Part shown: piece by piece, positions 2,962-48,317 of the stretch
Numbering within the stretch: position 1 is the first letter of the stretch
Layout: each line of letters begins with the position of its first letter
IMG/VR virus record: IMGVR_UViG_3300030380_002303
Span: 1 to 53,013 of that record
DNA from: a virus
Lineage: Duplodnaviria > Caudoviricetes
Direction: 5' to 3' (one strand)
Length of the DNA: 53,013 nt
Translations under genes and position numbers: made by a program
Notes under the pieces: generated by a model
What the model saw: the letters and a program-made list of their open reading frames with translations, nothing else
The model's database searches: none
Told to the model about the DNA's origin: nothing

Positions 2962-3009
2962 ATATTTATAAATATAAAATGTATAAACATAAATAAGGGA
3001 GAAAACAAA

Positions 3010-3366
3010 ATGCAGACTACATTAAATACAAATATAACAGGTAAGGGTAATTATAGAGATTATGTTAATAAAGCTCCACACCCTACAAATTCATATTTTA
3101 ATTTTGAAAGACAATCTTCAAAAAAACATATGTTTGGTTGGAATACAGATGTTCCTGCTTGGAATATACAATTTACATTAGATGGTTATAATTATAAGAC
3201 TGTCGGTGTTATAACTGTCTTTTCAGATGGTGTTATGGGTTCTTTAGATGATACAACAAATTCTTTAATGAATGTATCTGGTAAAGACCCTTTTGAGTTA
3301 TTTGTTGAATTAGTAAATAAAGCTAATTTTGATAAATTAGAAGATAAATTTAGTGTTAAATATTAA
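3010..3366 (+). CDS. Hypothetical early protein
   Basis: 118 aa, behind the promoter and a GGGAGAAAACAAAATG leader. Confidence 0.75.
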   Translation: MQTTLNTNITGKGNYRDYVNKAPHPTNSYFNFERQSSKKHMFGWNTDVPAWNIQFTLDGYNYKTVGVITVFSDGVMGSLDDTTNSLMNVSGKDPFELFVELVNKANFDKLEDKFSVKY

Positions 3367-3380
3367 TAGGGAGAAAACAA

Positions 3381-3611
3381 ATGAAAGATAAAATTACAAA
3401 ATCAGAAGCAAAGAAACTCTGTGAGCAACAGGGTTTCACTCTTGATGTGTTAAATCAAATGTTTGATGTTACACGAGAACCTAGAAAATATACATTTACA
3501 GTAGAAAATGAAAGACAATTTGCCATCAAGGTTCTAAATCCAATTTCAAATTTAAATCAAAGAGAAAGGGAAAGAGTATTGCAAAGAGCAATAAAAATGA
3601 ATAGGATTTAA
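3381..3611 (+). CDS. Hypothetical early protein
   Basis: 76 aa with a GGGAGAAAACAAATG leader. Confidence 0.75.
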   Translation: MKDKITKSEAKKLCEQQGFTLDVLNQMFDVTREPRKYTFTVENERQFAIKVLNPISNLNQRERERVLQRAIKMNRI

Positions 3612-19759: not shown

Positions 19760-21487
19760 TTATTCATAACATCTTGTTCTATAATTAAAATTAAATTCTC
19801 TTTGACCTATTTCTCCATAAATACCTTGTTCTCTAATTTTTCTTGTAATAATTTTGGTTATATTTTCTTCAAAATCTCTATGAATAACTAATCCTACATC
19901 ACACATATTAGCCCAATGTGCAGAGCCACTTACTTGATACAAATCTGGTGGTGGTAAAACTCCTGCATCATTTCTTTGTAATTTATGTGGGTGAGCAACC
20001 ATCCAAACTACAACTTGATGATTTCTAGCAAATCGCTGACATTTTGCAATTATGTCCCTAATGTGTTCATCTTCTCTTTTATTATTTTCTCTATCTGCAC
20101 TAATTTGATTAAAAGGGTCAATGACAAGACCTTTGATACCATATCTTTGTTTTGCTGATTTTGCCTTTTGCAAAATATAATCTATTGTTGGTATTACATC
20201 AGATGTTTCTAAAAATTTGAAATGATTATTTAGAAAATCCATACCATCAATTAATTCTTTCTGTGAAATTCTATCATAGGGTCCAATATCAAATGGTTTT
20301 CTACATCTTTTTTCTAACAATCTTCTAATGTGATTTGGTGTTGAATGTTCTGGTGAAAACACAAATAATTTCCAATTTTGTTGTTCTGCTAAATTCATTA
20401 GTATTTGGTCAAGAAAATTAGATTTACCATGATTTGGTATACCTGTTATAAGATTAAATGTAGATGGCATAATTTTGTATATTTCATCTAATTTATCAAA
20501 ACCTGTTGATATGGCTTTCTGTACATTGCCATCATACATATTTTGAATTGTATCTTTATATTCAAATGCAGTATGTAAATCTTCAATTGGAAATTCTTTT
20601 GCATTATAAATACATTCTTTTAATTTATCTTTACCAAATCTTACAAGGCACTCATTTGCATCTTTAACTTGTTTCTCATCTTCTAATGCACTATCTTTGT
20701 ACAGAGGAAAATGGACAACTTTACATATATCCCTGCCAAATCTATGCAACAATTCAAGTTTAAGGGAATTTCCTGCTTCATCATTATCTGTAGCAATGAT
20801 TACTTCTTCAGCATCAAATATCCATTCGCTCTGTTCAAAAGCAGAAAACCTTTTATCTTGCATATCAAATTTTGGTTCTTTCGGTGCACCATCTGGTAAA
20901 CTTACTGTATTTGTAAATCCTGCTTCAATCATTGACAAAACATCAATTTCACCTTCTACAAATATAATTTGTTTCTTTATTGGTGTATCTTCATTTTTAA
21001 GCCAATGTTCATACAAACCATCAATGTTATATAATGTTTTTAATGCATCTTTAGATTGATGAAATCTTTTATCTTTTGTTCTAAATTTTATATTTATAAT
21101 TTCTTTGTTGTAAAAATATGGAAAACATAATTTGTCATTTTGTGTATATAATCCCATAAAATGAGTGGTTGAATGTGTTATTCCTCTTTTTTCTAACCAA
21201 TTTTGTGCTTCATCAGATAATTTTTTATTTTCTGGAACAAATGGAATTACATTCTTTTTTGTTTCATGTGAAACATTTTTTTTCTTAAAATTAGGTGAAT
21301 CATATACAGAACCTTTCCAATCGCAATGATGACAATGCCATATTGCAATATCATGTTCTACATTTATTGATAAACATGCATCATATTTATTTTTTCTAGT
21401 ATGTGAACATTTAGGACAAATTGTTTTTTGTTGTCCATAACTTTGTATCTTAATATTTTCTTGTAATAATTTTTCGTGAATATTCAT
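19760..21487 (-). CDS. Primase-helicase (T7 gp4/Twinkle-like)
   Basis: CPKC..CHHC zinc domain, VEGEIDVLS and ATDNDEAG TOPRIM motifs, GIPNHGKS Walker A, VIDPFN, VAHP. Confidence 0.93.
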   Translation of the reverse strand: MNIHEKLLQENIKIQSYGQQKTICPKCSHTRKNKYDACLSINVEHDIAIWHCHHCDWKGSVYDSPNFKKKNVSHETKKNVIPFVPENKKLSDEAQNWLEKRGITHSTTHFMGLYTQNDKLCFPYFYNKEIINIKFRTKDKRFHQSKDALKTLYNIDGLYEHWLKNEDTPIKKQIIFVEGEIDVLSMIEAGFTNTVSLPDGAPKEPKFDMQDKRFSAFEQSEWIFDAEEVIIATDNDEAGNSLKLELLHRFGRDICKVVHFPLYKDSALEDEKQVKDANECLVRFGKDKLKECIYNAKEFPIEDLHTAFEYKDTIQNMYDGNVQKAISTGFDKLDEIYKIMPSTFNLITGIPNHGKSNFLDQILMNLAEQQNWKLFVFSPEHSTPNHIRRLLEKRCRKPFDIGPYDRISQKELIDGMDFLNNHFKFLETSDVIPTIDYILQKAKSAKQRYGIKGLVIDPFNQISADRENNKREDEHIRDIIAKCQRFARNHQVVVWMVAHPHKLQRNDAGVLPPPDLYQVSGSAHWANMCDVGLVIHRDFEENITKIITRKIREQGIYGEIGQREFNFNYRTRCYE

Positions 21488-21499
21488 TGTTTTCTCCCA

Positions 21500-22786: not shown

Positions 22787-23551
22787 ATGAAGATGAAAAG
22801 CAACAATCCATTTTTTAATCACGATATTTTTTGGTTATCTCATAGTTCTATATCTACATGGATTAGTTCACCATCAAAATTTATTGCTCAAAAATTGTTT
22901 AAAATAGATGATTATGGTTCTGCATCAATGCATAGAGGAACAGCATCTGAATATGCATTACATAAAAAATATGAAGAAGGCATATTTGATATACAACATG
23001 CAGAAAATAAATTTACTGAATTATGTAATTTTGGAGGTATAGATTGGGGAGATGCCACAAGATATAAAGAAAATATACAATTAAAAGAATATGGGAATAT
23101 TCTTAACAAAAACTTTAATTATAAAAATTTAGAAACATATCAAGAAAAAATTGAAATACAATTTGATGAATTACCAATACCAATTATTGGCTATATAGAT
23201 TTTGTATTTGATGATGTTGTTGTAGATTTAAAAACAACTGCAAGAATGCCATCAAAAGCAACCGAGTCCAATAAAAGACAAATGGCAATTTATAAAATGC
23301 ATTACAAAGATAAAAAATCAGAAGTGTTTTATGCAACACCAAAAGATTTTAAAGTTTTTAAATTGGATAATTTAGAGATTTACCAAGAACAAATAAAACA
23401 GATTGCTCTTGGCATAATGAAATTCTTATCTATCAGTGATGATAAAGAAGAATTAGCTTCCATGGTTTACCCAGATGTAGATGATTGGAGGTGGTCAGAA
23501 GAAATGATAAATGAAGTAAAACAAAAAGTTCAAGCATGGAGGAATATATGA
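22787..23551 (+). CDS. PD-(D/E)xK exonuclease (PDDEXK_1-like)
   Basis: LSHSSI, RGTASE, GYIDF..VVDLKT, RQMAIY. Confidence 0.88.
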   Translation: MKMKSNNPFFNHDIFWLSHSSISTWISSPSKFIAQKLFKIDDYGSASMHRGTASEYALHKKYEEGIFDIQHAENKFTELCNFGGIDWGDATRYKENIQLKEYGNILNKNFNYKNLETYQEKIEIQFDELPIPIIGYIDFVFDDVVVDLKTTARMPSKATESNKRQMAIYKMHYKDKKSEVFYATPKDFKVFKLDNLEIYQEQIKQIALGIMKFLSISDDKEELASMVYPDVDDWRWSEEMINEVKQKVQAWRNI

Positions 23552-24117
23552 AGAACGAAGAAAAATTAGCAAAAGACCAAACTATTATTGAAGAAGATGT
23601 AAAAGATGATGCAGATGTTATTGGTATGCCATCAACATTAAATTTATCTCAAGCAATGAATTTGTTTCAACAAAAAAATATTCAAGCAGTAAAAGATAAA
23701 AACAATCCGTTTTTTAAATCTACATATGCTGATTTAACATCTATTATAAATGCAGTAAATCAAGGTGCAGAATATGGATTAGCTTTTTCACAAAGTGTCC
23801 ATTATGAAAGAGTTATTTTAGATAGAAAAAGGGAAGATACACATAAAGATGGAACTGTATCTGTAACAACTGGTCAAGCAATTGAAAGAGATATATATGT
23901 TGAAACATTTGTTTGGCATAAAAGTGATGTTCACAAAGAAGATATACTTACTTGTAGAGTTCCTGTTCTTATAAAAGGTACAGACAAGGATGACCCACAA
24001 AAAATGGGTTCTGCCATCACATATGCAAAAAGATATGGTCTACAAGCATTATTTGGACTCGGTCAAGATGATGATGGAAATTTAGCAAGTGGAAAGGGCA
24101 AAAAAGATGAACAGTAA
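23548..24117 (+). CDS. erf: ERF-family single-strand annealing protein
   Basis: KNNPFFKSTYADL, QKMGSAITYAKRYGLQALFGL..DDDGN; GGAGG RBS favours the start at 23548. Confidence 0.9.
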   Translation: MKNEEKLAKDQTIIEEDVKDDADVIGMPSTLNLSQAMNLFQQKNIQAVKDKNNPFFKSTYADLTSIINAVNQGAEYGLAFSQSVHYERVILDRKREDTHKDGTVSVTTGQAIERDIYVETFVWHKSDVHKEDILTCRVPVLIKGTDKDDPQKMGSAITYAKRYGLQALFGLGQDDDGNLASGKGKKDEQ

Positions 24118-24544
24118 AACATATGATAATACCAATAGTGGTGTTTTATGGTCAATACCGAAAGATAATGAAAATAAACCAGAAATGTCATTGATACAAC
24201 AAGGTAAATTAAACATAAATGGTAATGAAATGAGAATTGTTGGCATAAAAAGATTAAATAAAGATGGTCAAGAAATGGTTGGATTATATCGTGAAATTGG
24301 CACAATAAAAGAAAATGCTAAAAAATTTTCAGACAAAGACCCAGATGCTAAAGGTGTTGTTAATAATATTGTTGATGATGGTGGATTTACTTGTTCTGCA
24401 TGGAAAAGTGTATCTGAAAAAAACAATCATTATGTAAGTCTTAAAATAAGAGCATTTGATGAAAGACCAGAACAACAAGAAACCACAGAATCAGAAGATA
24501 AAGAAATAGACACGTCTAATTTAGATGATGATATACCATTTTAA
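24107..24544 (+). CDS. Single-stranded DNA binding-like protein
   Basis: YDNTNSGVLW..SAW..YVSLKI with an acidic tail ending DDDIPF; follows exonuclease and erf. Confidence 0.75.
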   Translation: MNSKTYDNTNSGVLWSIPKDNENKPEMSLIQQGKLNINGNEMRIVGIKRLNKDGQEMVGLYREIGTIKENAKKFSDKDPDAKGVVNNIVDDGGFTCSAWKSVSEKNNHYVSLKIRAFDERPEQQETTESEDKEIDTSNLDDDIPF

Positions 24545-24555
24545 AGGAGGAAATT

Positions 24556-24867
24556 ATGCAGATAAAAGACTTAATTTTAAGTGAAGTGCAATCACACCCA
24601 CGAAGTACAAGGTCTGATGCACCAATAGGTTCTGAAAATCTTTCACAAGAAGAAAATGTAAAAAGATATTTAGAACAAATGAACATGATAACACCTTATT
24701 ATGCCTTAAATGTCTATGGTGCATTTAGATTAAGTGCCATTATTTTTAATTTAAGAAAAGAAGGTTTAGATATAATTACTGAATTAGTTACATCAAAAGG
24801 TAAAACATTTGCCTGTTACATGTTAAAGGCAAGATATGAAGAATTACAAACACAAGCCAATTCGTAA
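24556..24867 (+). CDS. Winged-helix protein (HTH_39-like)
   Basis: ITPYYALNVYGAFRLSAIIFNLRKEGLDIIT..FACY. Confidence 0.7.
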   Translation: MQIKDLILSEVQSHPRSTRSDAPIGSENLSQEENVKRYLEQMNMITPYYALNVYGAFRLSAIIFNLRKEGLDIITELVTSKGKTFACYMLKARYEELQTQANS

Positions 24868-25285
24868 TAAAAATTTTATGATATTTGTAGCGAATAAACC
24901 ATGTTCGTTACAAAATCATTCTTCTTATAGATGTAGTGGTGGTGTACAAGCACATCATCTTTTAAAACCATGGGACGGATATCGTGGTATGGGATTAAAA
25001 GCAGGTGATAATAATTGTATGCCACTATGTCAAAGGCATCATGCTCATTTACATGACAAACATGGCAATGAGGACACATTTTGGAGAATATTTAAATTAC
25101 CAGAAGATTATGGTCGTATTGTATCTAAATCTTTATGGCAATCTTTTAATATAGGAGTATCTATGCAAGAAAAATTAGAAAAATTTAGAGAATTAATAAC
25201 TGAAATTGACATATCACAATATAAACAAAGAGAATATGTAATCATTGTAAATTCTATTTATAAAAGTATTTTTGAGGATAAATAA
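24836..25285 (+). CDS. DUF968-like Cys/His (HNH-type) protein
   Basis: PC..C..AHHL..GMGLKAGD..PLCQRHHAHLH. Confidence 0.75.
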   Translation: MKNYKHKPIRNKNFMIFVANKPCSLQNHSSYRCSGGVQAHHLLKPWDGYRGMGLKAGDNNCMPLCQRHHAHLHDKHGNEDTFWRIFKLPEDYGRIVSKSLWQSFNIGVSMQEKLEKFRELITEIDISQYKQREYVIIVNSIYKSIFEDK

Positions 25286-25617
25286 TGCAAGAAATTATTT
25301 CAGAAGAAGATATCCATAAAGCTATGGATTGGTTACAAAAGAGTGCTAATGAATGTGCAAAGGATAAAGCCACATTAGATTATTTAAATGCCTATACAAA
25401 ACCATGTAAGGCTTTATTGATGAAAAAATTTAGTCATTTACCAATTTCAGCACAAACTAGAGAAGCAGAAGCACATGAAGATTATATTAAACATATTGAA
25501 TCAGTAAAAATTGCATCTGAAAAACATTATAAAAATCAATACTTTAGAGAAACTGCACTTGCAAAAATTGAGATATGGAGGACTCAAAATGCAAATTTTC
25601 GTGCAATGAAAATATAA
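25285..25617 (+). CDS. Hypothetical helical protein
   Basis: 110 aa, REAEA..IEIWRT pattern; TAATG-coupled. Confidence 0.7.
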   Translation: MQEIISEEDIHKAMDWLQKSANECAKDKATLDYLNAYTKPCKALLMKKFSHLPISAQTREAEAHEDYIKHIESVKIASEKHYKNQYFRETALAKIEIWRTQNANFRAMKI

Positions 25618-25650
25618 TAAAAAAAACTTTTATAAATATAAAAAAAAGAG

Positions 25651-25715
25651 TTGACCTATCTCCTACCTATGTAATTATATAATTATCATTAATTCAAATT
25701 GGGAGAAAACAAATG
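25651..25715 (+). promoter_or_regulatory. Early-type promoter lacking the operator, with the shared leader
   Basis: A-tract, TTGACC at 25651, AT-rich -10 region, TTGGGAGAAAACAAATG at 25699-25715. Confidence 0.6.
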
Positions 25716-25934
25716 ATAATAGAACTTTACGAAGACGTTAAACAATTAGATAAAGCTAAACATAATTTAATTTTAGCTCTAAATAATCATAATTCAAATA
25801 CAACTAAAGAAGATATCAAAAATGCTTTTGATATTATTGCTTATATGATTTCTACAAAAGAATCAGAAATTACAAAGATACAAGATGAACATAATAGACG
25901 TTCATTAGAAGATTTATTAGGGAGGAAAATCTAA
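25713..25934 (+). CDS. Hypothetical early protein
   Basis: 73 aa with the shared leader. Confidence 0.75.
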   Translation: MIIELYEDVKQLDKAKHNLILALNNHNSNTTKEDIKNAFDIIAYMISTKESEITKIQDEHNRRSLEDLLGRKI

Positions 25935-26152
25935 TGAGTATGTTTAATTATTTAGAAGAACAAGGCAATAAATTTCTTAACAAAAAAGTTCCTAATATAG
26001 TTGCTAATTCTGATTGTATTGAGGAAGCAATTGATAAATCATATAAATTATATCAATCACAATATAGTGGTTGTCCTAATTTAAGTCATTGTGGCTTTGA
26101 TGAAAAAATTACAGAAATATGGAATGAATATTGGGAGAATTACAATGAATAA
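25934..26152 (+). CDS. Hypothetical early protein
   Basis: 72 aa, GGGAGG RBS, coupled. Confidence 0.7.
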   Translation: MSMFNYLEEQGNKFLNKKVPNIVANSDCIEEAIDKSYKLYQSQYSGCPNLSHCGFDEKITEIWNEYWENYNE

Positions 26153-27404
26153 GCCAATTTTATGTTCAGAAATATTATCTGCACTTACACAACCAAAAAG
26201 AGCAATAGCCCTCTATCAAGGAGGGCGAACTGCAGATACTATGATAAGACAAAAACAAACTGAATTTGTTAATGCCAAGAAATTTGTAATAGATGCAAAT
26301 ATGATAGAACATGCTTGGAATATGTCATTGTCAAAACCATCTGTTTTATTAGAAATCTTTGAAGATGCAAAAATACCATTTGATAATTTATGGATAGAAT
26401 GGAATGAGCATATAAGACAGGATATTATGAAGAATTATTTTGAAAAAAATAATATGAAATATAAAAATCACAATGAATATCCAGATAATGTCGGTTATCA
26501 TATTTATAAACATAAAAATAAATTAGATGAAGAATATTTTATTTATGAAAATTGGTGGTTTACAGGTGGTAAATTTAAACATTTATCTATGCAAGAAACT
26601 GGGTTGAAAGATAAATTCTTTACTCCAACTATGGCTTTTACAATTACTGATTTCATTACAAATTGGCAAGATGAGCTTGCCAGAATTGATATATTAGATG
26701 AATTGCCAAAAACAGGAAGATGTAAAGATGAAGATGAATTAAAAATACAAGCATTTTCAATAGGTACATCTTTGTTAGGTAGAAGTTATAGTTTTAAATA
26801 TATACCTAAAAAATTTATTTTGAAACTAGAAGAAAAACAAAGACTTGCTGATAATGATGAATATGTAAAATACATTAAGAAAATAATTAAATATGATAAT
26901 AATCACGAATTTAATTGTTTTAAAGAATTATGTTACACATTAGCTTTAGCACAAAGTGCATCAATGCATTGGTCAATACCAGAGTGGAAATTTAAAGAAG
27001 GTTATACTCCTGAAGAAATCGCTCAACATCAAGGACATGCCATGATTACTATGGAGGGCGATGCAAGATTTTTAATTTCATTATTTGCACTCATGAATCA
27101 AAATATCCATGATAAAACTTTAATTGAACCTAGTAATAAAATTATACATACAAAATTGGGTAAAAGAGTGCCTAGAAATGATTATTACGTTCTAAATGTA
27201 AATATATCAGATTACAAAGTAAGAAAGATTTATAAATCTAAATTTACAGGCAAAGGTAATCCTAAAAGAGAACATGACAGGAGAGGTCATTTCAGACATT
27301 TAACAGATAATCAAGGTAATCTGAAAAAGAAGATATGGATTAAACATCAAACTGTCGGCAATAAAGAATTAGGCAGAATAGATAAAGATTATAAATTAAC
27401 TTAA
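26145..27404 (+). CDS. Hypothetical protein with C-terminal HxRRGHxR motif
   Basis: REHDRRGHFR..KKIWIKHQTVG; start at 26145 after TGGGAGAATTACA. Confidence 0.75.
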   Translation: MNKPILCSEILSALTQPKRAIALYQGGRTADTMIRQKQTEFVNAKKFVIDANMIEHAWNMSLSKPSVLLEIFEDAKIPFDNLWIEWNEHIRQDIMKNYFEKNNMKYKNHNEYPDNVGYHIYKHKNKLDEEYFIYENWWFTGGKFKHLSMQETGLKDKFFTPTMAFTITDFITNWQDELARIDILDELPKTGRCKDEDELKIQAFSIGTSLLGRSYSFKYIPKKFILKLEEKQRLADNDEYVKYIKKIIKYDNNHEFNCFKELCYTLALAQSASMHWSIPEWKFKEGYTPEEIAQHQGHAMITMEGDARFLISLFALMNQNIHDKTLIEPSNKIIHTKLGKRVPRNDYYVLNVNISDYKVRKIYKSKFTGKGNPKREHDRRGHFRHLTDNQGNLKKKIWIKHQTVGNKELGRIDKDYKLT

Positions 27405-27419
27405 AATAGTTAAAAAAAC

Positions 27420-27462
27420 TACACATTATGTGTTGACATATATGTATTTATAATTATATAAT
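27420..27462 (+). promoter_or_regulatory. Early promoter with operator
   Basis: TACACATTATGTGTT; TTGACA at 27433; TATAAT at 27457. Confidence 0.85.
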
Positions 27463-27492
27463 ATATATATAATGTTTTTAGGGAGAAAACGA

Positions 27493-27849
27493 ATGTTAAA
27501 AATAACTTTAAAATATATAGAAGAAGATAAAGGATATCCTTTAACAGATTGGGAAAAGGAATATTGTTATCAAAATATAACTTCAATTATGCAATATCGA
27601 AAAGAGATGGTGTATCAATCTATATCAGATATTTCAAAAGAATTAACTGGTTGTAGACATAGACTTGATATTGATAAATATACTCTTGTAGAATTACAAT
27701 CTATTCTTGATGATTATATTCAACAGAATAAAAAAATAAATCAAAGAATTGCAGACAAACAAGCTGAAAATTTTGTTAAGAATAAATTATTAGCAAAAAG
27801 TATTGGTGTTTCAATTGAGGATTTAATCAAATGGGAAGTGGCTTATTAA
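27493..27849 (+). CDS. Hypothetical early protein
   Basis: Start follows GGGAGAAAACGA. Confidence 0.75.
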   Translation: MLKITLKYIEEDKGYPLTDWEKEYCYQNITSIMQYRKEMVYQSISDISKELTGCRHRLDIDKYTLVELQSILDDYIQQNKKINQRIADKQAENFVKNKLLAKSIGVSIEDLIKWEVAY

Positions 27850-27894
27850 CCACTTCCCCTATAACCAAACGGAGGAATGTAAGGTTATTCCTCT
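27833..27894 (+). promoter_or_regulatory. Two tandem hairpins (terminator or processing site)
   Basis: GGGAAGTGG-8nt-CCACTTCCC and GAGGAAT-8nt-ATTCCTC. Confidence 0.55.
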
Positions 27895-27925
27895 TAAGTA
27901 TCATAAAATAAAAAAGGAGACAATT

Positions 27926-28828
27926 ATGTTAGATACTAAACTTTACGAAGAACAACTTGAGAAAATTAATTTTCAAGTGAATATTGAAGAAATAGATGGC
28001 ATACCTACAGATATGGCACAAAAGATTGTTAGAACTGATACCAATCAGCCATTAGGAATTGTTAAATCTAAATATAAGCCAATTAATCATAAAGAAGCAT
28101 TTTTAGGTGCCTTAATGCAAATGGATAAAGGCGGTGTATCTTTTAAAAATTCAGAAATCAAAATAGATGCATATGAAAATGGTGCTATGGCTAAAATGGA
28201 AGTCTTATTAAAAGACCATAACACAAAGATAGGTGAACATGATTTATCTTTAAAATTCATTGCAAGAAATTCTTACAATGGCAGATGGAAATTTCAATCA
28301 TTCTTTGGTTGGTTAAATCATGTTTGTTTCAATACATTAGTTACTGGTCAAAAATTAGCATATACATCAAATAGACATACAAAATCTTTTGATATTAGTA
28401 TGGCTAATAATAAGATTTCAAATGCAATTGAAGCAGTTACAAAAGAAACTGATAGATTTCAAAAATGGTGGGATACACCTGTTGAAGATAATGCAATTAA
28501 AGATATGTTTACAAAGACAATTGCAAAACAAAAATTATCAAAAGGTAGTCAACTAGCAGGTATCAATCAAACAAATAAGAAACAATTAGCAGTTCTTATG
28601 GGTTTATATGATGAAGAAGTAACACAAATACATGGTAGAGGTGATTATGGCAGAAATAATGCTAAAGGCTCTCTATGGTGTGCTTATCAATCAGCAACAG
28701 CATGGTCTACTCATCTTAATGATATTGTTAAAGATGAAACAAAAAAATACATTGTTGAAGTTGATAGACAAAATTCAGTATCAGATATGATAAATTCTGA
28801 TGCTTGGAAGCAATTAGAAACTGTTTAG
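27926..28828 (+). CDS. DUF932-family protein
   Basis: VRTDTNQPLGIV..YKPINH, RNSYNG, VCFNTL..RHT, SLWCAYQSATAW. Confidence 0.85.
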   Translation: MLDTKLYEEQLEKINFQVNIEEIDGIPTDMAQKIVRTDTNQPLGIVKSKYKPINHKEAFLGALMQMDKGGVSFKNSEIKIDAYENGAMAKMEVLLKDHNTKIGEHDLSLKFIARNSYNGRWKFQSFFGWLNHVCFNTLVTGQKLAYTSNRHTKSFDISMANNKISNAIEAVTKETDRFQKWWDTPVEDNAIKDMFTKTIAKQKLSKGSQLAGINQTNKKQLAVLMGLYDEEVTQIHGRGDYGRNNAKGSLWCAYQSATAWSTHLNDIVKDETKKYIVEVDRQNSVSDMINSDAWKQLETV

Positions 28829-28837
28829 GAGGAAAAT

Positions 28838-29113
28838 ATGAGAATATTGCTTTTAATTATAATTATGGGAATTGCATCTTGCAGTTCCCCTAAACATAAA
28901 ACAGTAACTTTAGGTTCTGAAGTGCCACAAGGTAAAGCTGAATTGATACATGAAAAACATATGTTTCAAATGTCTAGGCAAGAAACAATAAATGCCATCA
29001 ATGATTGTCATTCTGCAAATTTAAGAGCAATCATTTATCATAGTAGATTAAAAGTAACTGGTAGATTTATACCAATACCTGTATCTATTCAATGTGCGCC
29101 TAAAATTCAATAA
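28838..29113 (+). CDS. Predicted lipoprotein
   Basis: MRILLLIIIMGIAS-C lipobox. Confidence 0.75.
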   Translation: MRILLLIIIMGIASCSSPKHKTVTLGSEVPQGKAELIHEKHMFQMSRQETINAINDCHSANLRAIIYHSRLKVTGRFIPIPVSIQCAPKIQ

Positions 29114-29120
29114 TAAGGAG

Positions 29121-29146
29121 AGGGAGAAACTTTAAAATTTCTCCCT
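29121..29146 (+). terminator. Hairpin, probable terminator
   Basis: AGGGAGAAA-8nt-TTTCTCCCT directly after the lipoprotein stop. Confidence 0.55.
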
Positions 29147-29239
29147 TAATTATGCAGATTCTAAATTATTTAATTAATTAAGATTCATAACTAGAATTTT
29201 ATATTAAAATAAAAAAATTTATTTGTCCATATTTTTTTA

Positions 29240-29302
29240 GGACTGGCACTGAGTTCGATTTGGATTCCAGAAGCAGTTCGAATCCAATTCCAGACTGAGT
29301 CC
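29240..29302. other. GC-richer structured/repeated intergenic element
   Basis: Two AGTTCGA-N6-TTCCAGA units 23 bp apart; TTGGATTC/GAATCCAA stem; GGACT/AGTCC closing pair. Confidence 0.6.
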
Positions 29303-29328
29303 AACTAATAAAAAATAGTTTAAAAAAG

Positions 29329-29370
29329 AACACATTATGTGTTGACTTTTATAATTATAAATATTATAAT
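29329..29370 (+). promoter_or_regulatory. Early promoter with operator
   Basis: AACACATTATGTGTT; TTGACT-17bp-TATAAT. Confidence 0.9.
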
Positions 29371-29404
29371 ATATGTATAATCATTAAGAAAGGGAGAAAA
29401 CAAT

Positions 29405-29629
29405 ATGATTTATTCTTATGATGCAATTGATAAAATTGAAAATTTTTCTGATGAACAAGTAATACAATTTTATCATAATGCTTATGAAACATTCGTTTTT
29501 GCTTTAGGACATTCTAAAGGACAACGTAATGAATTTGCGAAGAATTTTTACAAAGAAGAACTCGCAAAAAGAGGTATTAAAAACATACCTGATAGAAAAG
29601 GTGTTTTTAATGGTAGTGGAACTTCTTAA
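29405..29629 (+). CDS. Hypothetical early protein
   Basis: 74 aa with its own promoter, shared leader and terminator. Confidence 0.8.
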   Translation: MIYSYDAIDKIENFSDEQVIQFYHNAYETFVFALGHSKGQRNEFAKNFYKEELAKRGIKNIPDRKGVFNGSGTS

Positions 29630-29645
29630 CAAACAGAATAAAATT

Positions 29646-29669
29646 GAGGGATTAATTTCCCTCTTTTTT
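29646..29669 (+). terminator. Intrinsic terminator
   Basis: GAGGGA-6nt-TCCCTC followed by TTTTTT. Confidence 0.8.
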
Positions 29670-29678
29670 ATATTTTTT

Positions 29679-29720
29679 AACACAATATGTGTTGACATTT
29701 AGAATTATAAATATTATAAT
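29679..29720 (+). promoter_or_regulatory. Early promoter with operator
   Basis: AACACAATATGTGTT; perfect TTGACA-17bp-TATAAT. Confidence 0.92.
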
Positions 29721-29752
29721 CTATATATAAAGATTTTCATGGGAGAAAACAA

Positions 29753-30193
29753 ATGACAATAAAAATAACAAAAAAAATAAACAAAATAAAAATTGATGAT
29801 ATACCATTAATTCAAACTGTTTTTGCAAAAAGATGGTATTGTGGAAAGTATGAATATCATAGTTTAGCAGGAGGAGCACCAGACAAATGCAAACCTATTG
29901 GAATATTTACAAGTCCAAAAAATAATAAACAATACATGATATTAAAAGGATTTGATAAAGGTTGCATGGTTAGATTTGCAACATATTATAATGTTGTTGA
30001 ATTACATTCTGAAATTCATACTAATGAGATTGAATATAATAAATTCAATAACCCATTGGAGAAATTACAATTTGATACAATTTTAGATGAAAATATTGGT
30101 TTGTATTCCCAAAAAAGATTTCCTAATCTTAATGAAATTAAATATTATTTTGAAAATACAGAACAATTTAAATTTTTTGAATCTAAATTATAA
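29753..30193 (+). CDS. Hypothetical early protein
   Basis: 146 aa with the shared leader. Confidence 0.8.
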   Translation: MTIKITKKINKIKIDDIPLIQTVFAKRWYCGKYEYHSLAGGAPDKCKPIGIFTSPKNNKQYMILKGFDKGCMVRFATYYNVVELHSEIHTNEIEYNKFNNPLEKLQFDTILDENIGLYSQKRFPNLNEIKYYFENTEQFKFFESKL

Positions 30194-30236
30194 ACACAAA
30201 ATGTGTTGACTTATTAACCAATTAATATAATATAAT
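30193..30236 (+). promoter_or_regulatory. Early promoter with operator
   Basis: AACACAAAATGTGTT; TTGACT at 30206; TAATAT/TATAAT at 30228-30236. Confidence 0.85.
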
Positions 30237-30262
30237 AATATAACGTTTTATGGGAGAAACAA

Positions 30263-30508
30263 ATGACACCACAAGAAAAAGAATATAATCAATATCTTAA
30301 AGATAACATTACACATTATCTTGTAAGTGAATTTCTAGGCAGAGGTCAATACAGAAAGACAAAATTTATCTCTTTTAACAAAGCAAAATGTTTTTATTTT
30401 TCTTTGAAAGAAGATAATCCTATTTGTCAATGTGCATTATATGGCATATCAGAGCCTAAAGACAAATTATATCCTATCAATGTATTGATGGAGAATTTAG
30501 ATGTATAA
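30263..30508 (+). CDS. Hypothetical early protein
   Basis: 81 aa with a TGGGAGAAACAAATG leader. Confidence 0.75.
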   Translation: MTPQEKEYNQYLKDNITHYLVSEFLGRGQYRKTKFISFNKAKCFYFSLKEDNPICQCALYGISEPKDKLYPINVLMENLDV

Positions 30509-30692
30509 ATTAGAATTATCAAAAGAAGAATTACATTGTATAATTATGGCAAATATGGATTATGCTGAAAAATTATGTACTCAACACAATGATAAACCAT
30601 TTGATGCTCAAAAAAGGTATGAATTGGTTGTTAATTTAGAAACAAAATTACAAGGTGTTTGGAATAAAGGAGATAAGATTGATGGAAAATAG
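30501..30692 (+). CDS. Hypothetical early protein
   Basis: 63 aa, GGAG RBS, overlaps the upstream stop. Confidence 0.7.
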   Translation: MYKLELSKEELHCIIMANMDYAEKLCTQHNDKPFDAQKRYELVVNLETKLQGVWNKGDKIDGK

Positions 30693-30846
30693 ATATTATG
30701 TTAAGATAAGATTATATGATAATTTACCAGATATGCCACAACATGGAAAATATTTACAATTTATGATTGAAGCAGATTCAGAAGAAGAAATAAAAATGAT
30801 GATTTCAACAAAGCATACTATAACATTGCTACAACTTGTTGATTAA
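30682..30846 (+). CDS. Hypothetical early protein
   Basis: AAGGAG RBS supports MENRYY start at 30682. Confidence 0.65.
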   Translation: MENRYYVKIRLYDNLPDMPQHGKYLQFMIEADSEEEIKMMISTKHTITLLQLVD

Positions 30847-30850
30847 AGAA

Positions 30851-30927
30851 TTGGGCTCCGTGGAAAGCATTTGTTTTCTCCCAACCCCACTATAAATAGG
30901 CATGCTAAGGTCGGAGATAGGTATGCC
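30851..30927 (+). ncRNA. Candidate regulatory small RNA antisense to the shared early-gene leader
   Basis: Non-coding, GC-richer than its surroundings, two stem-loops; 30868-30884 is the reverse complement of TTGGGAGAAAACAAATG. Confidence 0.45.
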
Positions 30928-31002
30928 ACCGTTAATAGAAATATCCAAATAAGAAAGAATATCCCCAAACACCTAAAGTTAAATATATAAAATCTTCGTT
31001 AT

Positions 31003-31485
31003 TCATGTATTTTTCTGTTTGTACAAATATAAAAGTAAAAATATAAAACCAATGATTGTTAATGTTAATAAACCAATAGCAAAACCATTTATGATTTTAT
31101 GTAATCTTTCTTTTCTTTTATAAAAATTTTCCTGTCTTTCTTTTCTTATTTTACCTTCCATAGCAAGTAATTCATTCCATGCTTGTGGTCCAAATGAAAG
31201 ACTTAAATATTGTTTTAATTCATATCTTTGTTGTTCTAATTTTTTTTTAGCGGCAAAAGCTTCAAGTGCTTGTTGTTCTATAGAACTTGCATACATAAGT
31301 TTTTTAAATAATGGTGGATTTTTTGCTTCTTTTTCTGCTTGGTCAACATCTGATACTGCACTCATCCATTTTCCAATTTGTGATGCCATCTGGTCTATAT
31401 CTTGACCAATTGCAAATCCTTGTTTTATGGTATTAAATGCTTTAGTGGCAACACCAATAGCACCTGCAATTGTTAATGGGTCCAT
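31003..31485 (-). CDS. Conserved membrane-anchored protein
   Basis: MDPLTI.. amphipathic N-terminus, coiled coil, C-terminal transmembrane helix. Confidence 0.75.
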   Translation of the reverse strand: MDPLTIAGAIGVATKAFNTIKQGFAIGQDIDQMASQIGKWMSAVSDVDQAEKEAKNPPLFKKLMYASSIEQQALEAFAAKKKLEQQRYELKQYLSLSFGPQAWNELLAMEGKIRKERQENFYKRKERLHKIINGFAIGLLTLTIIGFIFLLLYLYKQKNT

Positions 31486-31486
31486 T

Positions 31487-31654
31487 TTACCTCACAAGCA
31501 AACCTATTAATAAGACAATAGTTGTACCTGCTGTTCCTATCATAATATGTTCTATTCGTTTAATTCTCAATATAGTTTCTTTCCATCTTTCAGCACAAAC
31601 TGCTTCATGTGTGTCTATTTGAGATTTTACCTCTTGTGTACTTAATTTTGGCAT
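31487..31654 (-). CDS. Small membrane protein (HEAVCAERW; XhlA/holin-like)
   Basis: Coiled coil plus C-terminal transmembrane helix; GGGGAG RBS favours start 31654. Confidence 0.65.
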   Translation of the reverse strand: MPKLSTQEVKSQIDTHEAVCAERWKETILRIKRIEHIMIGTAGTTIVLLIGLLVR

Positions 31655-31677
31655 ATAATATTGTATTACTCCCCACA

Positions 31678-33699
31678 TTATGTTGAATCTAAAGTTTGCA
31701 TAATTTTTCGTTTTGCAGATGTAGATAAACCTTTTACAAACTCAGGCACTGCATCATTTTGTTCTGATGCTAAAGCACCAAGTGAAAAATTAATGTTTGG
31801 CTCATCAAATGAAACATTTGTTGCAGTTGTTTGTCCACTTGCCGATGCAGTTCCACCTCTTACAACATTAATAATTGTATTTAGTTTTTGTAATGCTAAT
31901 TGCCTTGAATTAATATCAGTAAGAGCTTTTTTTAACAATTCTGCATCTTCTGTAACAATTAATTGTACAACTTGTTCTAATTGTTTGTCTGATAAACCTT
32001 TTGTTTTTTCTGGTAAAAATTTTTTAATTAAAGGAATTCCAGATAAAAAATTTCCACTTATCACACTTGCTAAATTACTTGCATCTTCAACAGTTCCAAT
32101 ATTTTTTACTCGTTCTTGTGTAATTGCAGTTGGACTTCCACCTAAAATTTTACCTTTTGCCATAATAGAACCTTCAGCAATTTCGCCTTTTGTTAATAGG
32201 TCATCTAATTGATTTTTTGGAAAAATTTTAGTTAATATTATTCTTTCTTTACTATCAGGACGATTTAAATCTCTTATAAATGTATTTTTCGCTGTCCTAG
32301 ATTTTGATATCTTGTTTTTTATTGAACGAGCTATACCTTCTCTAAATGAATTTAATAACTCTGAATCATTTAAATTTATTACTTCATTAATTCTTATTTC
32401 TGCTTCATCAACATTTTTACCTAATAATTTATTTCCTTCTTCAAATAAATCACTTCCTAATTCTATTTTAGCCCAATTTGCTCTTGTATTTTTTAATTCT
32501 GGTGATATTTCATCTAATTTATTTTTTAAAGACATTGCTAAATTAGTAACAACATCTGCCTCTTCATTTTTTGGCATTCTTCTTAATTCTAAAGCTTTAT
32601 CTCTGATAATTCTATATATGCTTTCTCCAGTTTCTAAATTAATATCTTTGGATAATATATAGCCATCTTTTGTTTTTTCAAACAATGTTGGCAACCCTTT
32701 TGCTTTTAAAATTCTGTTTACATCTTTTGTCAATCTTTGTGGCTCATAACTATTTACAATGTTTAAAACTAAATTATTTAAATTTTCATCACTTAAATTA
32801 TCATATTGTTGAAAAATTTTATTGTATGCTTCTGACTCTAATTTTTTTACTTCTTTTGTTGATTTTTGAACTAAATCTAAAATATTTGCAGAACCTTTTT
32901 TTGGTGCTAATCCTTTTATTGTTGTATCTACAACTGATTTAATATTTTTATCCTCTCTTTTAGTCAATGAATCTCTTAATTGACCTGCACCAGCAGTTCC
33001 TTTAGAATAAATAGCTCTTATTTCAGTAGCAACTTCAGGACTTAATTCAGGAAATGTTTTACCTTTTCCAACTTCTTCAATTACTTCTTCTATTGGTATT
33101 CCTGCAGTATTGGCTATTCTTACAATTTCATCTTCTGCTTTTTTGCCTATTTGTCCTAAAATTGCTCTTTTTAATTTCCCTGTAGTTCCTTTTATAACTT
33201 TTCCACCTACATCAACAGTTTTTGAAAAAATTGGACCTGCTATTGCTGATAATGTTGTATCTACTGCAACATTAATTGGATTTTCAACAATTCTTTCTAC
33301 AACATCACCTTCTTTTTCTCCAACAGAAGAAACTAAACCACTTGTTCCTGCAATAGCCATCGCTCTAGCACCTGTTACAGGTAAACTTGCGCCAAATGTA
33401 AATGGCATAGTTAAAATTCCAGTAGTCAAGGCTCCACCAATCTCATATTTTAATGAACCATCTTTTGTTCTAGCTTTTTCAATTAAATCTCGTTCAATCT
33501 TTATTAATTCATCATAAGATTTATCAGAATATAATGATTGAAAACCAGCAATTGCTTCATCACTAAAATTCATAGATAAACCTTGAGAAAATAACCTTAT
33601 TCTATCAAAATTATTTAAACCTTCTTCTTTTGTAGGTGCATTTTTGATATTTAATTTTTTTGCTTTATCTTCTATTCTTTTTATTTGTTCTTCACTCAT
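31678..33699 (-). CDS. Putative DNA ejection/internal virion protein
   Basis: 673 aa, helical; QGLSMNFSDE motif then a Gly/Ala hydrophobic segment; third gene after the GNAT. Confidence 0.65.
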   Translation of the reverse strand: MSEEQIKRIEDKAKKLNIKNAPTKEEGLNNFDRIRLFSQGLSMNFSDEAIAGFQSLYSDKSYDELIKIERDLIEKARTKDGSLKYEIGGALTTGILTMPFTFGASLPVTGARAMAIAGTSGLVSSVGEKEGDVVERIVENPINVAVDTTLSAIAGPIFSKTVDVGGKVIKGTTGKLKRAILGQIGKKAEDEIVRIANTAGIPIEEVIEEVGKGKTFPELSPEVATEIRAIYSKGTAGAGQLRDSLTKREDKNIKSVVDTTIKGLAPKKGSANILDLVQKSTKEVKKLESEAYNKIFQQYDNLSDENLNNLVLNIVNSYEPQRLTKDVNRILKAKGLPTLFEKTKDGYILSKDINLETGESIYRIIRDKALELRRMPKNEEADVVTNLAMSLKNKLDEISPELKNTRANWAKIELGSDLFEEGNKLLGKNVDEAEIRINEVINLNDSELLNSFREGIARSIKNKISKSRTAKNTFIRDLNRPDSKERIILTKIFPKNQLDDLLTKGEIAEGSIMAKGKILGGSPTAITQERVKNIGTVEDASNLASVISGNFLSGIPLIKKFLPEKTKGLSDKQLEQVVQLIVTEDAELLKKALTDINSRQLALQKLNTIINVVRGGTASASGQTTATNVSFDEPNINFSLGALASEQNDAVPEFVKGLSTSAKRKIMQTLDST

Positions 33700-35087
33700 C
33701 TATTCTCCAATAAATCATCAATTCTTCGTTCTATTGCAAATAAAATTACAGGATTACTTTTTACATTTTTTGCTCTTAGCATAAATTGCAATTGTGAAAG
33801 ATTTAAATTGTTTACAAAATCTTTTAATTTCTTATCTACATCTTCTGGTATTGGTTTAAGTGTTCCAATATCATCTGCATCTTCTTTTTGTATATATAAA
33901 TCATAATTTATATTTCTTGGTATTCTTACATTATATCCTGTTACATCATATTTTTTTGGCTTAATTAAATATAAATCAGAATCTATACCAAATGCTTTAC
34001 TAAATAATTTTTCTTTTGTATTTTTATTATCCAATAAACTAATTTGTTTATCGTAATATGCATAAGCACCATCTCTAAAACTTTTTCTTTGTGTATCAGT
34101 TAAACGACCTTCACCTAAAAGACTATTATATACATTAGCTAAATAATTAAACATACTTGATGTTGATTGAGCTTGTTGTTGTTCACCTTCTCTAACAACA
34201 GAACGAGGGTCTAACATTTTCATGTATGCAAATATCATACTTAAATCAGCAACTTTTGGTTCATCTAAAGTATATGCTTGGTCATATGACACTAATACTT
34301 TATTAAATGTTTGTTCTAATTCTTGAAAATCTTTAACTTCTTTTGATTTTAGATATTCTTTTGATAATTTCATTAAATTATCTTTTTGAATTTTATTTAA
34401 TTCTACAACTGGTTTTGTGTCTGTTTCTGAAATTGTAACTGTAGATACATTATCATTTTTAGATTGAGCATTAATACTGTAATCAATAAATTTATTGTTA
34501 TCATCAAATACTCTTTTACCTGCTTGTGGTCCATCTTTGTAAATCTTTCTACCAAAAGGGTCATCAATTATCTTTATGTCTGTTGTTTTTGGTATTTGAG
34601 TAGTTAATTTATTTTGAGCATCAGGTTGTAATACACTAAATTGTTTTTGTGTAAGAAAAAGATTATCACCTTTTTTGTATGTAACACCATTAATAGTAAC
34701 AGGTTCTTGTGCAATATATTCTTTAGAAGCACTTGTTTTTCCAAATTTATCAAATAGTTGTAATCCTAAAGTTGCTCGTGTCATATCTCGTTTTTCTTGA
34801 GCCTCTTTATCAGCTAAATATTGTCTTGCACCTGTTACAACACCACTACTTATAGCGCCAACTGCTGTTGCACCGGGTTGTGATGCTTTTTGAGCAATAT
34901 CTGCTGATGCAATTAAAGTAATTAAAGCTGGGTCAATAGGTTTTCTTCTAGGTGCTAATTGATTAATAATATTTTGTAATGCACCACCTTGAACTTGATT
35001 CATGTTAGTGGCTGAAACACCTCTTACATTACCCATAGATTTGAGTAAATTTAATATGTTGTCTGAACCTGTACTTTCAATTGCCAT
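33696..35087 (-). CDS. Putative DNA ejection protein
   Basis: 463 aa; DLSMIFAYMKMLDPRSVVREGE motif; position in the ejection module. Confidence 0.65.
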   Translation of the reverse strand: MAIESTGSDNILNLLKSMGNVRGVSATNMNQVQGGALQNIINQLAPRRKPIDPALITLIASADIAQKASQPGATAVGAISSGVVTGARQYLADKEAQEKRDMTRATLGLQLFDKFGKTSASKEYIAQEPVTINGVTYKKGDNLFLTQKQFSVLQPDAQNKLTTQIPKTTDIKIIDDPFGRKIYKDGPQAGKRVFDDNNKFIDYSINAQSKNDNVSTVTISETDTKPVVELNKIQKDNLMKLSKEYLKSKEVKDFQELEQTFNKVLVSYDQAYTLDEPKVADLSMIFAYMKMLDPRSVVREGEQQQAQSTSSMFNYLANVYNSLLGEGRLTDTQRKSFRDGAYAYYDKQISLLDNKNTKEKLFSKAFGIDSDLYLIKPKKYDVTGYNVRIPRNINYDLYIQKEDADDIGTLKPIPEDVDKKLKDFVNNLNLSQLQFMLRAKNVKSNPVILFAIERRIDDLLENR

Positions 35088-47691: not shown

Positions 47692-48317
47692 TATATGCCT
47701 CCTTCGTATTCACTCGCATAGTTTCGTTGCATTTCTTGTTGAAACAATGCTATTGCTTCATCAAATTGCTGTTTATACAAGTTTACAGTATCTGGAGCCT
47801 TAAGAAAAGTAGAAGTTTCATAAAGACACGCAGATAATAAAACTTGCTCTGCATTATCACCTATCCAACTATTTGCGTTCAAGGTGGATAATCCTGTTTC
47901 TAAACCTATAAAATCAATCTCAAATGCCAAAGTTGCAGATGGCACAGGACTTACTAACACTTGTATTCCAGAAGTTGTAGCTTTTTTTGTAGCATAAAAT
48001 TCTGGTTCTCCTTGTGTTGTAACATTAGGTCTAAAATCTTTTATATAACTGTCTGTTCTATGTTTTAAATACACAACATTGCTTGATGATGTTGTTATTT
48101 GTACTTGTCTAATCATTCTAGCATTTGCTACATTTATTGTGGCAGTGCCAATAGAAAAATTACCAGTATTTGTTTGTCTATAACATGGTAAATTAGGCAA
48201 TCTAGCAAATATCATATTTTCTGATTGTTTAATTATTTCTGGTATAGATGTATCTAATTCTGTGGAATCATCTTCTATAAAATTTTTTATGTTTGTTTCT
48301 AATTGTGTAAAATTCAT
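47691..48317 (-). CDS. Head-tail adaptor/tail tubular A-like protein
   Basis: MNFTQLETNIKNF..GEPEFY..VSPVP..VLLSACLYE. Confidence 0.65.
   Translation of the reverse strand: MNFTQLETNIKNFIEDDSTELDTSIPEIIKQSENMIFARLPNLPCYRQTNTGNFSIGTATINVANARMIRQVQITTSSSNVVYLKHRTDSYIKDFRPNVTTQGEPEFYATKKATTSGIQVLVSPVPSATLAFEIDFIGLETGLSTLNANSWIGDNAEQVLLSACLYETSTFLKAPDTVNLYKQQFDEAIALFQQEMQRNYASEYEGGI

Follow-up and report, generated by a model that had tools for sequence, protein, structure and literature searches.

The DNA analysed here (the window, a complete virus record of 53,013 bp with about 30% G+C) carries, in the gap where early and late genes converge, an element of about 76 nt on the + strand that is very probably a real and new structured phage RNA. 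Its four helices, a pseudoknot among them, are kept through compensatory changes in 19 homologues, as is expected of a structured non-coding RNA, and ten invariant nucleotides within it, UUUUCUCCCA, are the exact complement of UGGGAGAAAA, the invariant Shine-Dalgarno core of the leaders of a class of early genes. It can be proposed, tentatively and at somewhat less than even confidence, that the element acts as an anti-leader repressor by pairing with these leaders. The main rival to this reading is a purely structural element at the 3' end of the early transcripts.

The window belongs to a podovirus-like marine phage. Judged by the large terminase, the nearest isolates are two Roseobacter phages, CRP-901 and CRP-902, with 75% identical amino acids; according to the paper that describes them, neither encodes an RNA polymerase (PMC10149686). 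A megablast search of positions 29500-32500 against phage records gave no match, and ARAGORN found no tRNA or tmRNA gene in the window. The + strand genes from 22787 to 30846 form an early module of the recombination type, including an exonuclease, Erf, an SSB-like protein, an HNH nuclease and many small ORFs, and this module converges on the structural and late module of the - strand; several helix-turn-helix proteins are encoded as well. The element lies in the gap between the two modules, bounded by the following ORFs:

30655-30846, + strand: last early ORF, 63 aa as listed, with its stop 5 nt before the element
30932-31006, - strand: last late gene, a conserved hydrophobic 24-aa ORF, with its stop 4 nt from hairpin H1 of the element

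An earlier note on this DNA had placed a candidate antisense RNA directly after the last early ORF, and the start of the element 5 nt past that stop agrees with this. The 24-aa ORF on the other side (MNNEDFIYLTLGVWGYSFLFGYFY) overlaps the stop of a 160-aa late gene through ATGA, and the same frame is found with conservative changes at the related loci L002, L003, L004 and L005; judging from this sequence pattern, it is probably a real small membrane protein, easily missed by gene callers.

The feature that drew attention to the site is the 17-mer CATTTGTTTTCTCCCAA on the + strand at 30868-30884, which is complementary over 17 of 17 positions to a leader and its ATG at 25699-25715, just as the earlier note had claimed. 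In a both-strand search allowing up to two mismatches there were five matches, against 0.06 expected, and none of 100 shuffles reached five; a match this far from random speaks for an anti-leader repressor. The five were the 17-mer itself at 30868 (+) and, on the - strand, 25699-25715 (no mismatch), 29739-29755 (one), 3367-3383 (one) and 27479-27495 (two, one being a G.U position). The shorter complements that had been listed were likewise recovered, over 16 of 16 nt at 29740, 15 of 15 nt at 3369 and with one G-U at 27481 (27481-27495), as were the bulged ones at 2997, 29392, 30252 and the primase-helicase leader at 21498(-). The leaders concerned are these:

25699-25715, + strand: leader and ATG of gene 25713-25934, perfect 17-nt complement
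29740-29755, + strand: leader and ATG of gene 29753-30193, 16-nt complement, behind a perfect TTGACA-17-TATAAT promoter
3369-3383, + strand: leader and ATG of gene 3381-3611, 15-nt complement
27481-27495, + strand: leader and ATG of gene 27493-27849, complement with one G.U position, behind a perfect sigma-70-type promoter
2997-3012, + strand: leader and ATG of gene 3010-3366, 13-nt complement with one extra A
29392-29407, + strand: leader and ATG of gene 29405-29629, 12-nt complement
30252-30265, + strand: leader and ATG of gene 30263-30508, which opens the operon ending at the element, with one A fewer in the leader
21485-21499, - strand: leader and ATG of the primase-helicase gene 19760-21487, 13-nt complement

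In front of eight genes (3010, 3381, 19760(-), 25713, 27493, 29405, 29753 and 30263) stands GGGAGAAAAC, with a short A-rich stretch between it and the ATG. This word is the most frequent 10-mer with at least four G or C in the window genome (G000) and in its relative G001, with 8 and 9 copies, respectively, counted on both strands and including one copy that is the element's own; its prominence is a further point in favour of an anti-leader repressor. Several of the leader-bearing genes lie behind sigma-70-type promoters with perfect or near-perfect hexamers, and a palindrome, ACAC-W4-TGTG, overlaps the -35 hexamer of those promoters, occurring six times on the + strand.

Some further observations concern these leaders and their promoters. 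The palindrome, a candidate operator, is fused to TTGAC at 2920, 22662, 27421, 29330, 29680 and 30194 (+), and the operator-bearing promoters at 27433, 29342 and 29692 match the TTGACA/TATAAT hexamers at 11 or 12 of 12 positions. In most leaders (for example, 29728-29755 and 27470-27495), UUUU(C) stands just 5' of GGGAG and AAAA(C) just 3' of it, so a small leader hairpin could present the Shine-Dalgarno sequence in its loop. A perfect hairpin at 29122-29146, after gene 28838-29113, joins a leader-like word to its complement (AGGGAGAAA, loop, TTTCTCCCT) and is terminator-like on the - strand only. The consensus 3' end of the unrelated Rfam family RF02980 (freshwater-2), AAGGAGAAAAcAAAUG, equals the phage leader over 14 nt (compared with 30868-30885 on the - strand), which suggests that the leader is close to a ribosome binding site common in some aquatic bacteria.

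Homologues of the element were gathered in several ways. With the 160-aa neighbouring late gene as query, 45 related loci were found, and in three of these (L004, L007 and L008) a similar element occupies the equivalent position between convergent genes. Scanning viral contigs for the conserved core returned 82 stretches, with the element in 9, and a stricter pattern applied to metagenome contigs returned 95, with the element in 19. Combined, these gave 19 distinct homologues of four main types from marine phage and metagenome contigs. All of them were gathered with patterns or models containing the core; scans anchored on H1 instead found the same nine viral contigs and no others. The 19 sequences represent only about five lineages, with about five haplotypes per helix, so that the invariance of the core rests on few lineages.

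The position of the element is conserved along with its sequence. In all six fetched genomes it runs in the same direction as the leader-bearing early genes and stands at their downstream end, as would suit an anti-leader repressor. In G000 to G004 only 5-7 nt lie between the last early stop codon and the start of the element, and its end is no more than a few nt from where the convergent late ORF stops. In the G005 type the homologous early ORF is set apart from the element by a spacer of about 75 nt. This spacer (G005 48171-48245, also seen in G014, L164 and L172) is AT-rich and holds a conserved block, GATATAATTTAACAAAATCTA; it includes TTGACT-16-TATAAG by regular expression and a conserved TATAAT block, and the promoter scan lists no + strand promoter there. 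On this sequence pattern, the G005-type element might have its own promoter. Contigs of three public runs (X2, X3 and X4) have a 5-nt insertion, AACTC, after 30865, within the 5' arm of hairpin H3; natural variants with a different H3 therefore exist. Four public runs were compared, all of them as assembled contigs; the one contig from an RNA library (one of five runs being on record as RNA) spans 30565-30817, in a relative, and does not reach the element.

The proposed fold has two hairpin domains, an outer helix (Px') and a pseudoknot, arranged as follows:

30852-30927, + strand: whole structured element, about 76 nt, defined by covariance-model matches in the window and relatives, pair counts, the strand test and the flanking ORFs
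30852-30855, + strand: 5' strand of Px', UGGG, pairing with 30886-30889 (76/76 cells; covarying pair GC 14, UA 3, UG 2)
30856-30860, + strand: 5' strand of the pseudoknot, CUCCG, pairing with 30912-30916 in the H1 loop (113/127 cells; five haplotypes)
30862-30879, + strand: hairpin H3, GGAAAGC, loop AUUU, GUUUUCU (131/133 cells paired)
30868-30884, + strand: 17-mer anti-leader, running from the C that closes H3 through its loop and 3' arm to CCCAA in the internal loop
30880-30885, + strand: 3' side of the internal loop, CCCAAC, the C-rich anti-Shine-Dalgarno part, unpaired in the Px' model
30886-30889, + strand: 3' strand of Px', CCCA, pairing with 30852-30855
30899-30927, + strand: hairpin H1, GGCAUGC, 15-nt loop, GUAUGCC (133/133 cells; 4 of 7 pairs changed on both sides; five haplotypes)

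The 15-nt loop of H1 holds the 3' strand of the pseudoknot (CGGAG, 30912-30916) between conserved A-rich flanks, AAG upstream and AUA downstream. The pairings were counted in an alignment (A6) of the 19 sequences made with a covariance model (R2) built from the window alone with three nested helices; this model was used because the MAFFT alignments (A2 and A3) were out of register. An alignment made with another model, R1 (A4), had several rows one column out of register and was set aside for A6, in which L007 and L212 are one column off in H3 and account for two of the non-pairs. Counting the pseudoknot, 95.5% of the 488 cells of A6 are paired, compared with 84.6% in shuffled alignments (0 of 500 reaching the observed value) and 47-55% when slid; with Px' as outer stem the figure is 96.6% of 469 cells, compared with 84.5% shuffled (0 of 500) and 49-53% slid. 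Ten pairs change on both sides, and the covariation score is 0.351 as against 0.130 for shuffled alignments (0 of 500) and at most 0.098 for slid ones. In the pseudoknot itself, 4 of 7 pairs have changed on both sides, and its 113 paired cells of 127 compare with 33-55% when slid. Neither the pseudoknot nor Px' was part of the aligning model, so the support for these two helices was not produced by fitting.

Px' was first suggested by single-sequence folds, as UGGN at 30852-30855 with NCCA at 30886-30889. The earlier note had put the 17-mer in a stem of either GTGG/CCAC or TTGGG/CCCAA. The former pairing is not kept in relatives; the latter, adjacent to Px', pairs in 89 of 95 cells and is possible, but Px', with all its cells paired and a covarying pair, is the best supported of the three. 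H3 is predicted by single-sequence folds in 10 of 10 homologues, and its 5' arm varies, giving G.U or A-U pairs, against an unchanging 3' arm. One separate idea, that the fold stimulates read-through of the preceding stop codon, was rejected: the frame is open for 48 codons past the stop in the window, but in G001 it stops after 19 and in G005 after 6.

The alignment also tells the strand of the RNA. Read in the + sense, its 488 cells comprise 419 Watson-Crick pairs, 47 G.U pairs and 22 non-pairs; in the - sense these become 419, 2 and 67. Because the wobbles are G.U in the + sense, the folded RNA runs in the sense of the early genes and carries the anti-leader, and the + strand, 3'-UTR sense assigned by the earlier note is thus borne out for a conserved structured RNA. 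Conservation of this fold on this strand (96.6% of cells, as given above) favours an anti-leader repressor.

Within the element, UUUUCUCCCA is identical in 19 of 19 homologues and CCCA is invariant in the same 19, in searches that required this core. The first part of UUUUCUCCCA is the 3' arm of H3, its C-rich half lies in the internal loop, and it lies 27 nt past the last early stop codon. The one-sided invariance of H3, with a fixed 3' arm and a varying 5' arm, and the coincidence of the fixed ten nucleotides of the element with the fixed ten of the leaders argue for an anti-leader repressor. When each of seven genomes was searched in full for exact complements of the element, early leaders were the longest (12-17 nt) in six, always at nucleotides 25-41 of the element; the exception is G014, whose best complement is only 11 nt. 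The H3 loop follows the leader spacer of its own clade, CAAATG in the window, CAAT(A) in G001-G004 and TTAT in G005, so that in three of four clades the complementarity extends 4-6 nt into the hairpin loop. Both this tracking and the rank of the leaders as longest complements count in favour of an anti-leader repressor. As to the co-variation of leader and anti-leader that the earlier note had asked for in relatives, the loop tracks the leaders in those three clades and not in the fourth, L007/G014, which has only 11 contiguous nt and a loop mismatched to its leaders (GGGAGAAAATTATG vs element ..AAAAAAATG). Ranking by duplex energy, also put forward in that note, did place leaders as the seven top targets (-24 to -28 kcal/mol, median -14), but the controls reached -22.7 kcal/mol (reversed) and -28.3 kcal/mol (- sense), and the ranking adds little.

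Two further relations between element and leaders can be read in more than one way. The word GGGAGAAAA has 3-10 copies in all seven genomes with the element and 0-2 in all ten without it (absence being checked with model R1). This co-occurrence gives no independent support, because element and leaders are inherited in one early module: G006, the closest late-gene relative lacking the element, has none of the eight leader-bearing early genes. An analogous repeated leader was looked for in G006, and its top 10-mer is a coding repeat. In the window there is, in addition, a second block: ACCTATCTCCTACCT, at 25654-25668 within the gene 25713 promoter, agrees at 14 of 15 positions with the complement of 30907-30921 (H1 loop and pseudoknot strand), a score reached in 1 of 2000 shuffles. 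It was absent from G001-G005, where it was looked for, and is found in the window only. From its sequence this block could be an extended second target or a trace of descent from an inverted promoter-leader cassette.

How such a repressor would work can be outlined as follows; from the sequence, fold, strand and complementarity observed above we infer its transcription, pairing, repression and timing. Early transcripts would carry the element as their 3' UTR, or it would be cut out of them. First contact would be made by the unpaired H3 loop and the CCCA internal loop, after which the RNA would pair with early mRNAs from the Shine-Dalgarno sequence to the AUG, acting in trans or between the 3' and 5' ends of one mRNA. 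Pairing would block ribosome loading and probably yield a duplex that is cleaved, while the pseudoknotted fold may give the RNA stability and set its 3' end. Precedents for such action are found in the icaR 3' UTR (PMC3868564) and in P1 c4 (PMC12197685). A broader 'master' riboregulator is a doubtful extension of this model: a single pseudoknotted RNA would act through the shared leader to silence, as a class, all the genes that open early operons, with the primase-helicase gene among them, and a switch of UGGG between CCCA, which would expose the anti-Shine-Dalgarno loop, and the adjacent CCCAA, which would hide it, could time the early-to-late transition alongside the DNA operator.

Several findings weigh against an anti-leader repressor. 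About half of the anti-leader is base-paired in the fold, and in single-sequence ensembles of ten homologues the 10-nt core has a mean unpaired probability of 0.31-0.40, being about two-thirds paired. In the L007/G014 clade the match between element and leaders is poor. The unrelated freshwater-2 family likewise has GGAGAAAACAAAUG as its 3' consensus; the leader may in part be a generic strong ribosome binding site. The element would be co-produced with its proposed targets, and late shut-off then needs added assumptions such as accumulation or processing; moreover, a pseudoknotted fold of two domains is more elaborate than antisense action requires.

The purely structural alternative is possible while on balance improbable. 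The compact pseudoknotted RNA would end, insulate or stabilise the early transcripts at the place where early and late transcription collide, as a non-canonical terminator or an exonuclease block, and its likeness to the leaders would be a by-product, for example of descent from an inverted promoter-leader cassette. The position between convergent stop codons and the U-rich sequence that follows H1 in several relatives would suit this role, and an inverted-cassette origin fits the second block, ACCTATCTCC(T/G)ACCT, common to the complement of the element and the promoter of gene 25713 (14/15), as well as the hairpin at 29122-29146, which likewise joins GGGAGAAA with its complement. A terminator role is less easily reconciled with the lack of a U-tract after H1 in the window, and of the nine terminator-like sites found in 24000-34000, none falls in 30847-31002 on either strand, nor is there one around the G005 copy. 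Tracts of 10-17 nt are also short for gene conversion. A structural role leaves unexplained why exactly UUUUCUCCCA is fixed while its partner varies and why the H3 loop tracks the leader spacer in three of four clades. An RNA that binds a ligand or a protein or cleaves itself, with the leader likeness incidental or secondary, is rather unlikely. The invariant internal loop, the A-rich flanks of the pseudoknot strand and the covarying loop-to-bulge pseudoknot are features such an RNA might have, but there is no downstream + strand gene to control, nothing indicates a ligand or a cleavage site, and the Rfam matches obtained at E up to 10 are at chance level and differ between homologues.

Other explanations place the function on the - strand or in the DNA. 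It is quite improbable that the functional RNA is a - strand copy made by late read-through, a leader mimic titrating a leader-binding factor or the 30S subunit, as the earlier note had offered in the alternative: a full leader-like UUGGGAGAAAACAAAUG does stand directly after the last late ORF, but the strand test disfavours the idea, with 67 cells unpaired compared with 22 in the + sense and the 47 wobble cells turned into A.C mismatches, and the AUG is not conserved. A - strand sigma-70 promoter upstream of the motif was considered and rejected, the would-be -10 lying in a variable linker (L050, for example, has CACGGTTGG). Very improbable, too, is the suggestion that TGGGAGAAAA acts as DNA, a phage protein binding each early leader and, in inverted orientation, the convergent junction as a roadblock or operator. 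The 10-mer occurs at 8 or more places per genome in either orientation, and the phage has several helix-turn-helix proteins, but compensatory changes in four helices and strand-specific wobbles are left unexplained, and the early promoters already have a separate palindromic operator. Least credible of all, and hardly to be entertained, is that the motif is the remnant of a lost - strand gene start. The - strand does read a perfect ribosome binding site and ATG opening a 13-codon ORF, as the earlier note had pointed out, but the ATG is absent from L004-type and L047-type elements (two of four clades), the short ORFs of 10-19 codons differ in start and length and are not alignable, and the compensatory changes are unlike those of coding sequence. 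No longer - strand gene starts at the motif in any relative, so the finding that the note had said would count against its proposal, namely relatives with an intact - strand gene at this place, was not made.

Comparison with described RNAs places the element outside the known families. No Rfam model matched at its gathering score over the whole window, and at E up to 10 (30780-31010, 30846-30940 and four homologous loci) only chance-level matches appeared. Of the known riboswitch and self-cleaving ribozyme classes, SAM_alpha alone gave a match, of 10.7 bits (gathering score 36, E 2-5); it was rejected, because it depends on the GTGG/CCAC pairing found only in the window and is not seen again in homologues. 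The strand order also differs from that of pistol, twister and HDV-like ribozymes, to which Rfam gave no match, and these were set aside. A limited search of the literature on phage sRNAs and anti-Shine-Dalgarno RNAs found no such system described for phage early genes.

The closest described parallel is the 3' UTR of icaR in Staphylococcus aureus, which pairs with its own Shine-Dalgarno region through UCCCCUG, blocks the initiation complex and makes an RNase III substrate (PMC3868564). Like that UTR, the element has a stretch rich in C and U where an operon ends, and this stretch complements Shine-Dalgarno leaders, among them the leader of the gene that opens the operon (30252, imperfectly); UUUUCUCCCA/UGGGAGAAAA are a C-rich motif and its Shine-Dalgarno complement within what would be a 3' UTR. 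Unlike icaR, it matches eight leaders, reaches the AUG, sits in a conserved pseudoknotted fold and is encoded by a phage. The c4 RNA of phage P1 is reported to block a ribosome binding site, with its complementary sequences likely in loops, and to share its transcript region with its target (PMC12197685, PMC8546580). The element resembles c4 of P1 and P7 in being a structured, phage-encoded RNA with complementarity around the ribosome binding site, and differs from it in that c4 controls one operon (ant) in the immunity of temperate phages. C4-type RNAs have two loop sequences complementary to two target sites, one of which covers a ribosome binding site. In the element, one block (H3 loop, 3' arm and internal loop) complements ribosome binding sites in all genomes; a second, in the H1 loop, matches only the sequence upstream of gene 25713, in the window, at 14 of 15 positions, and is absent from G001-G005. 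The described c4 fold is not known to have a pseudoknot. The Rfam family C4, among the 4227 Rfam models, represents c4; no match to it was found, neither in the whole window at the gathering score nor, with E allowed up to 10, at the locus and four homologous loci.

The Rsa sRNAs of Staphylococcus reportedly carry an unpaired C-rich (UCCC) motif, and for this motif pairing to the Shine-Dalgarno sequences of a number of mRNAs has been proposed. Unlike these chromosomal, stand-alone sRNA genes, the element is a phage 3'-end element with a single invariant CUCCCA in internal loop and stem, and the two have no sequence or Rfam relation. It is like intrinsic (Rho-independent) terminators in lying between convergent genes and placing hairpins at a transcript's 3' end, and unlike them in that no G+C-rich stem followed by a U-tract is seen; it has instead two domains with a covarying pseudoknot and an invariant single-stranded core. 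By sequence and predicted fold, then, the element belongs to none of the icaR, c4 and Rsa families, from which it differs in its pseudoknot, its phage origin and its complementarity to a whole class of leaders.

RNA-level control in phages is known mainly for single operons of temperate phages (c4, sar, OOP). If the pairing proposed here is true, a virulent-type marine phage controls the translation of a whole temporal gene class by one small structured RNA, and with an element of about 76 nt and leaders of 15-17 nt the hypothesis is testable without the natural host. Whatever its function, the element adds to the known RNAs a new and compact motif, not in Rfam, whose loop-to-bulge pseudoknot is well supported, and it occurs in abundant, little-studied marine podophages related to the CRP-901 type.
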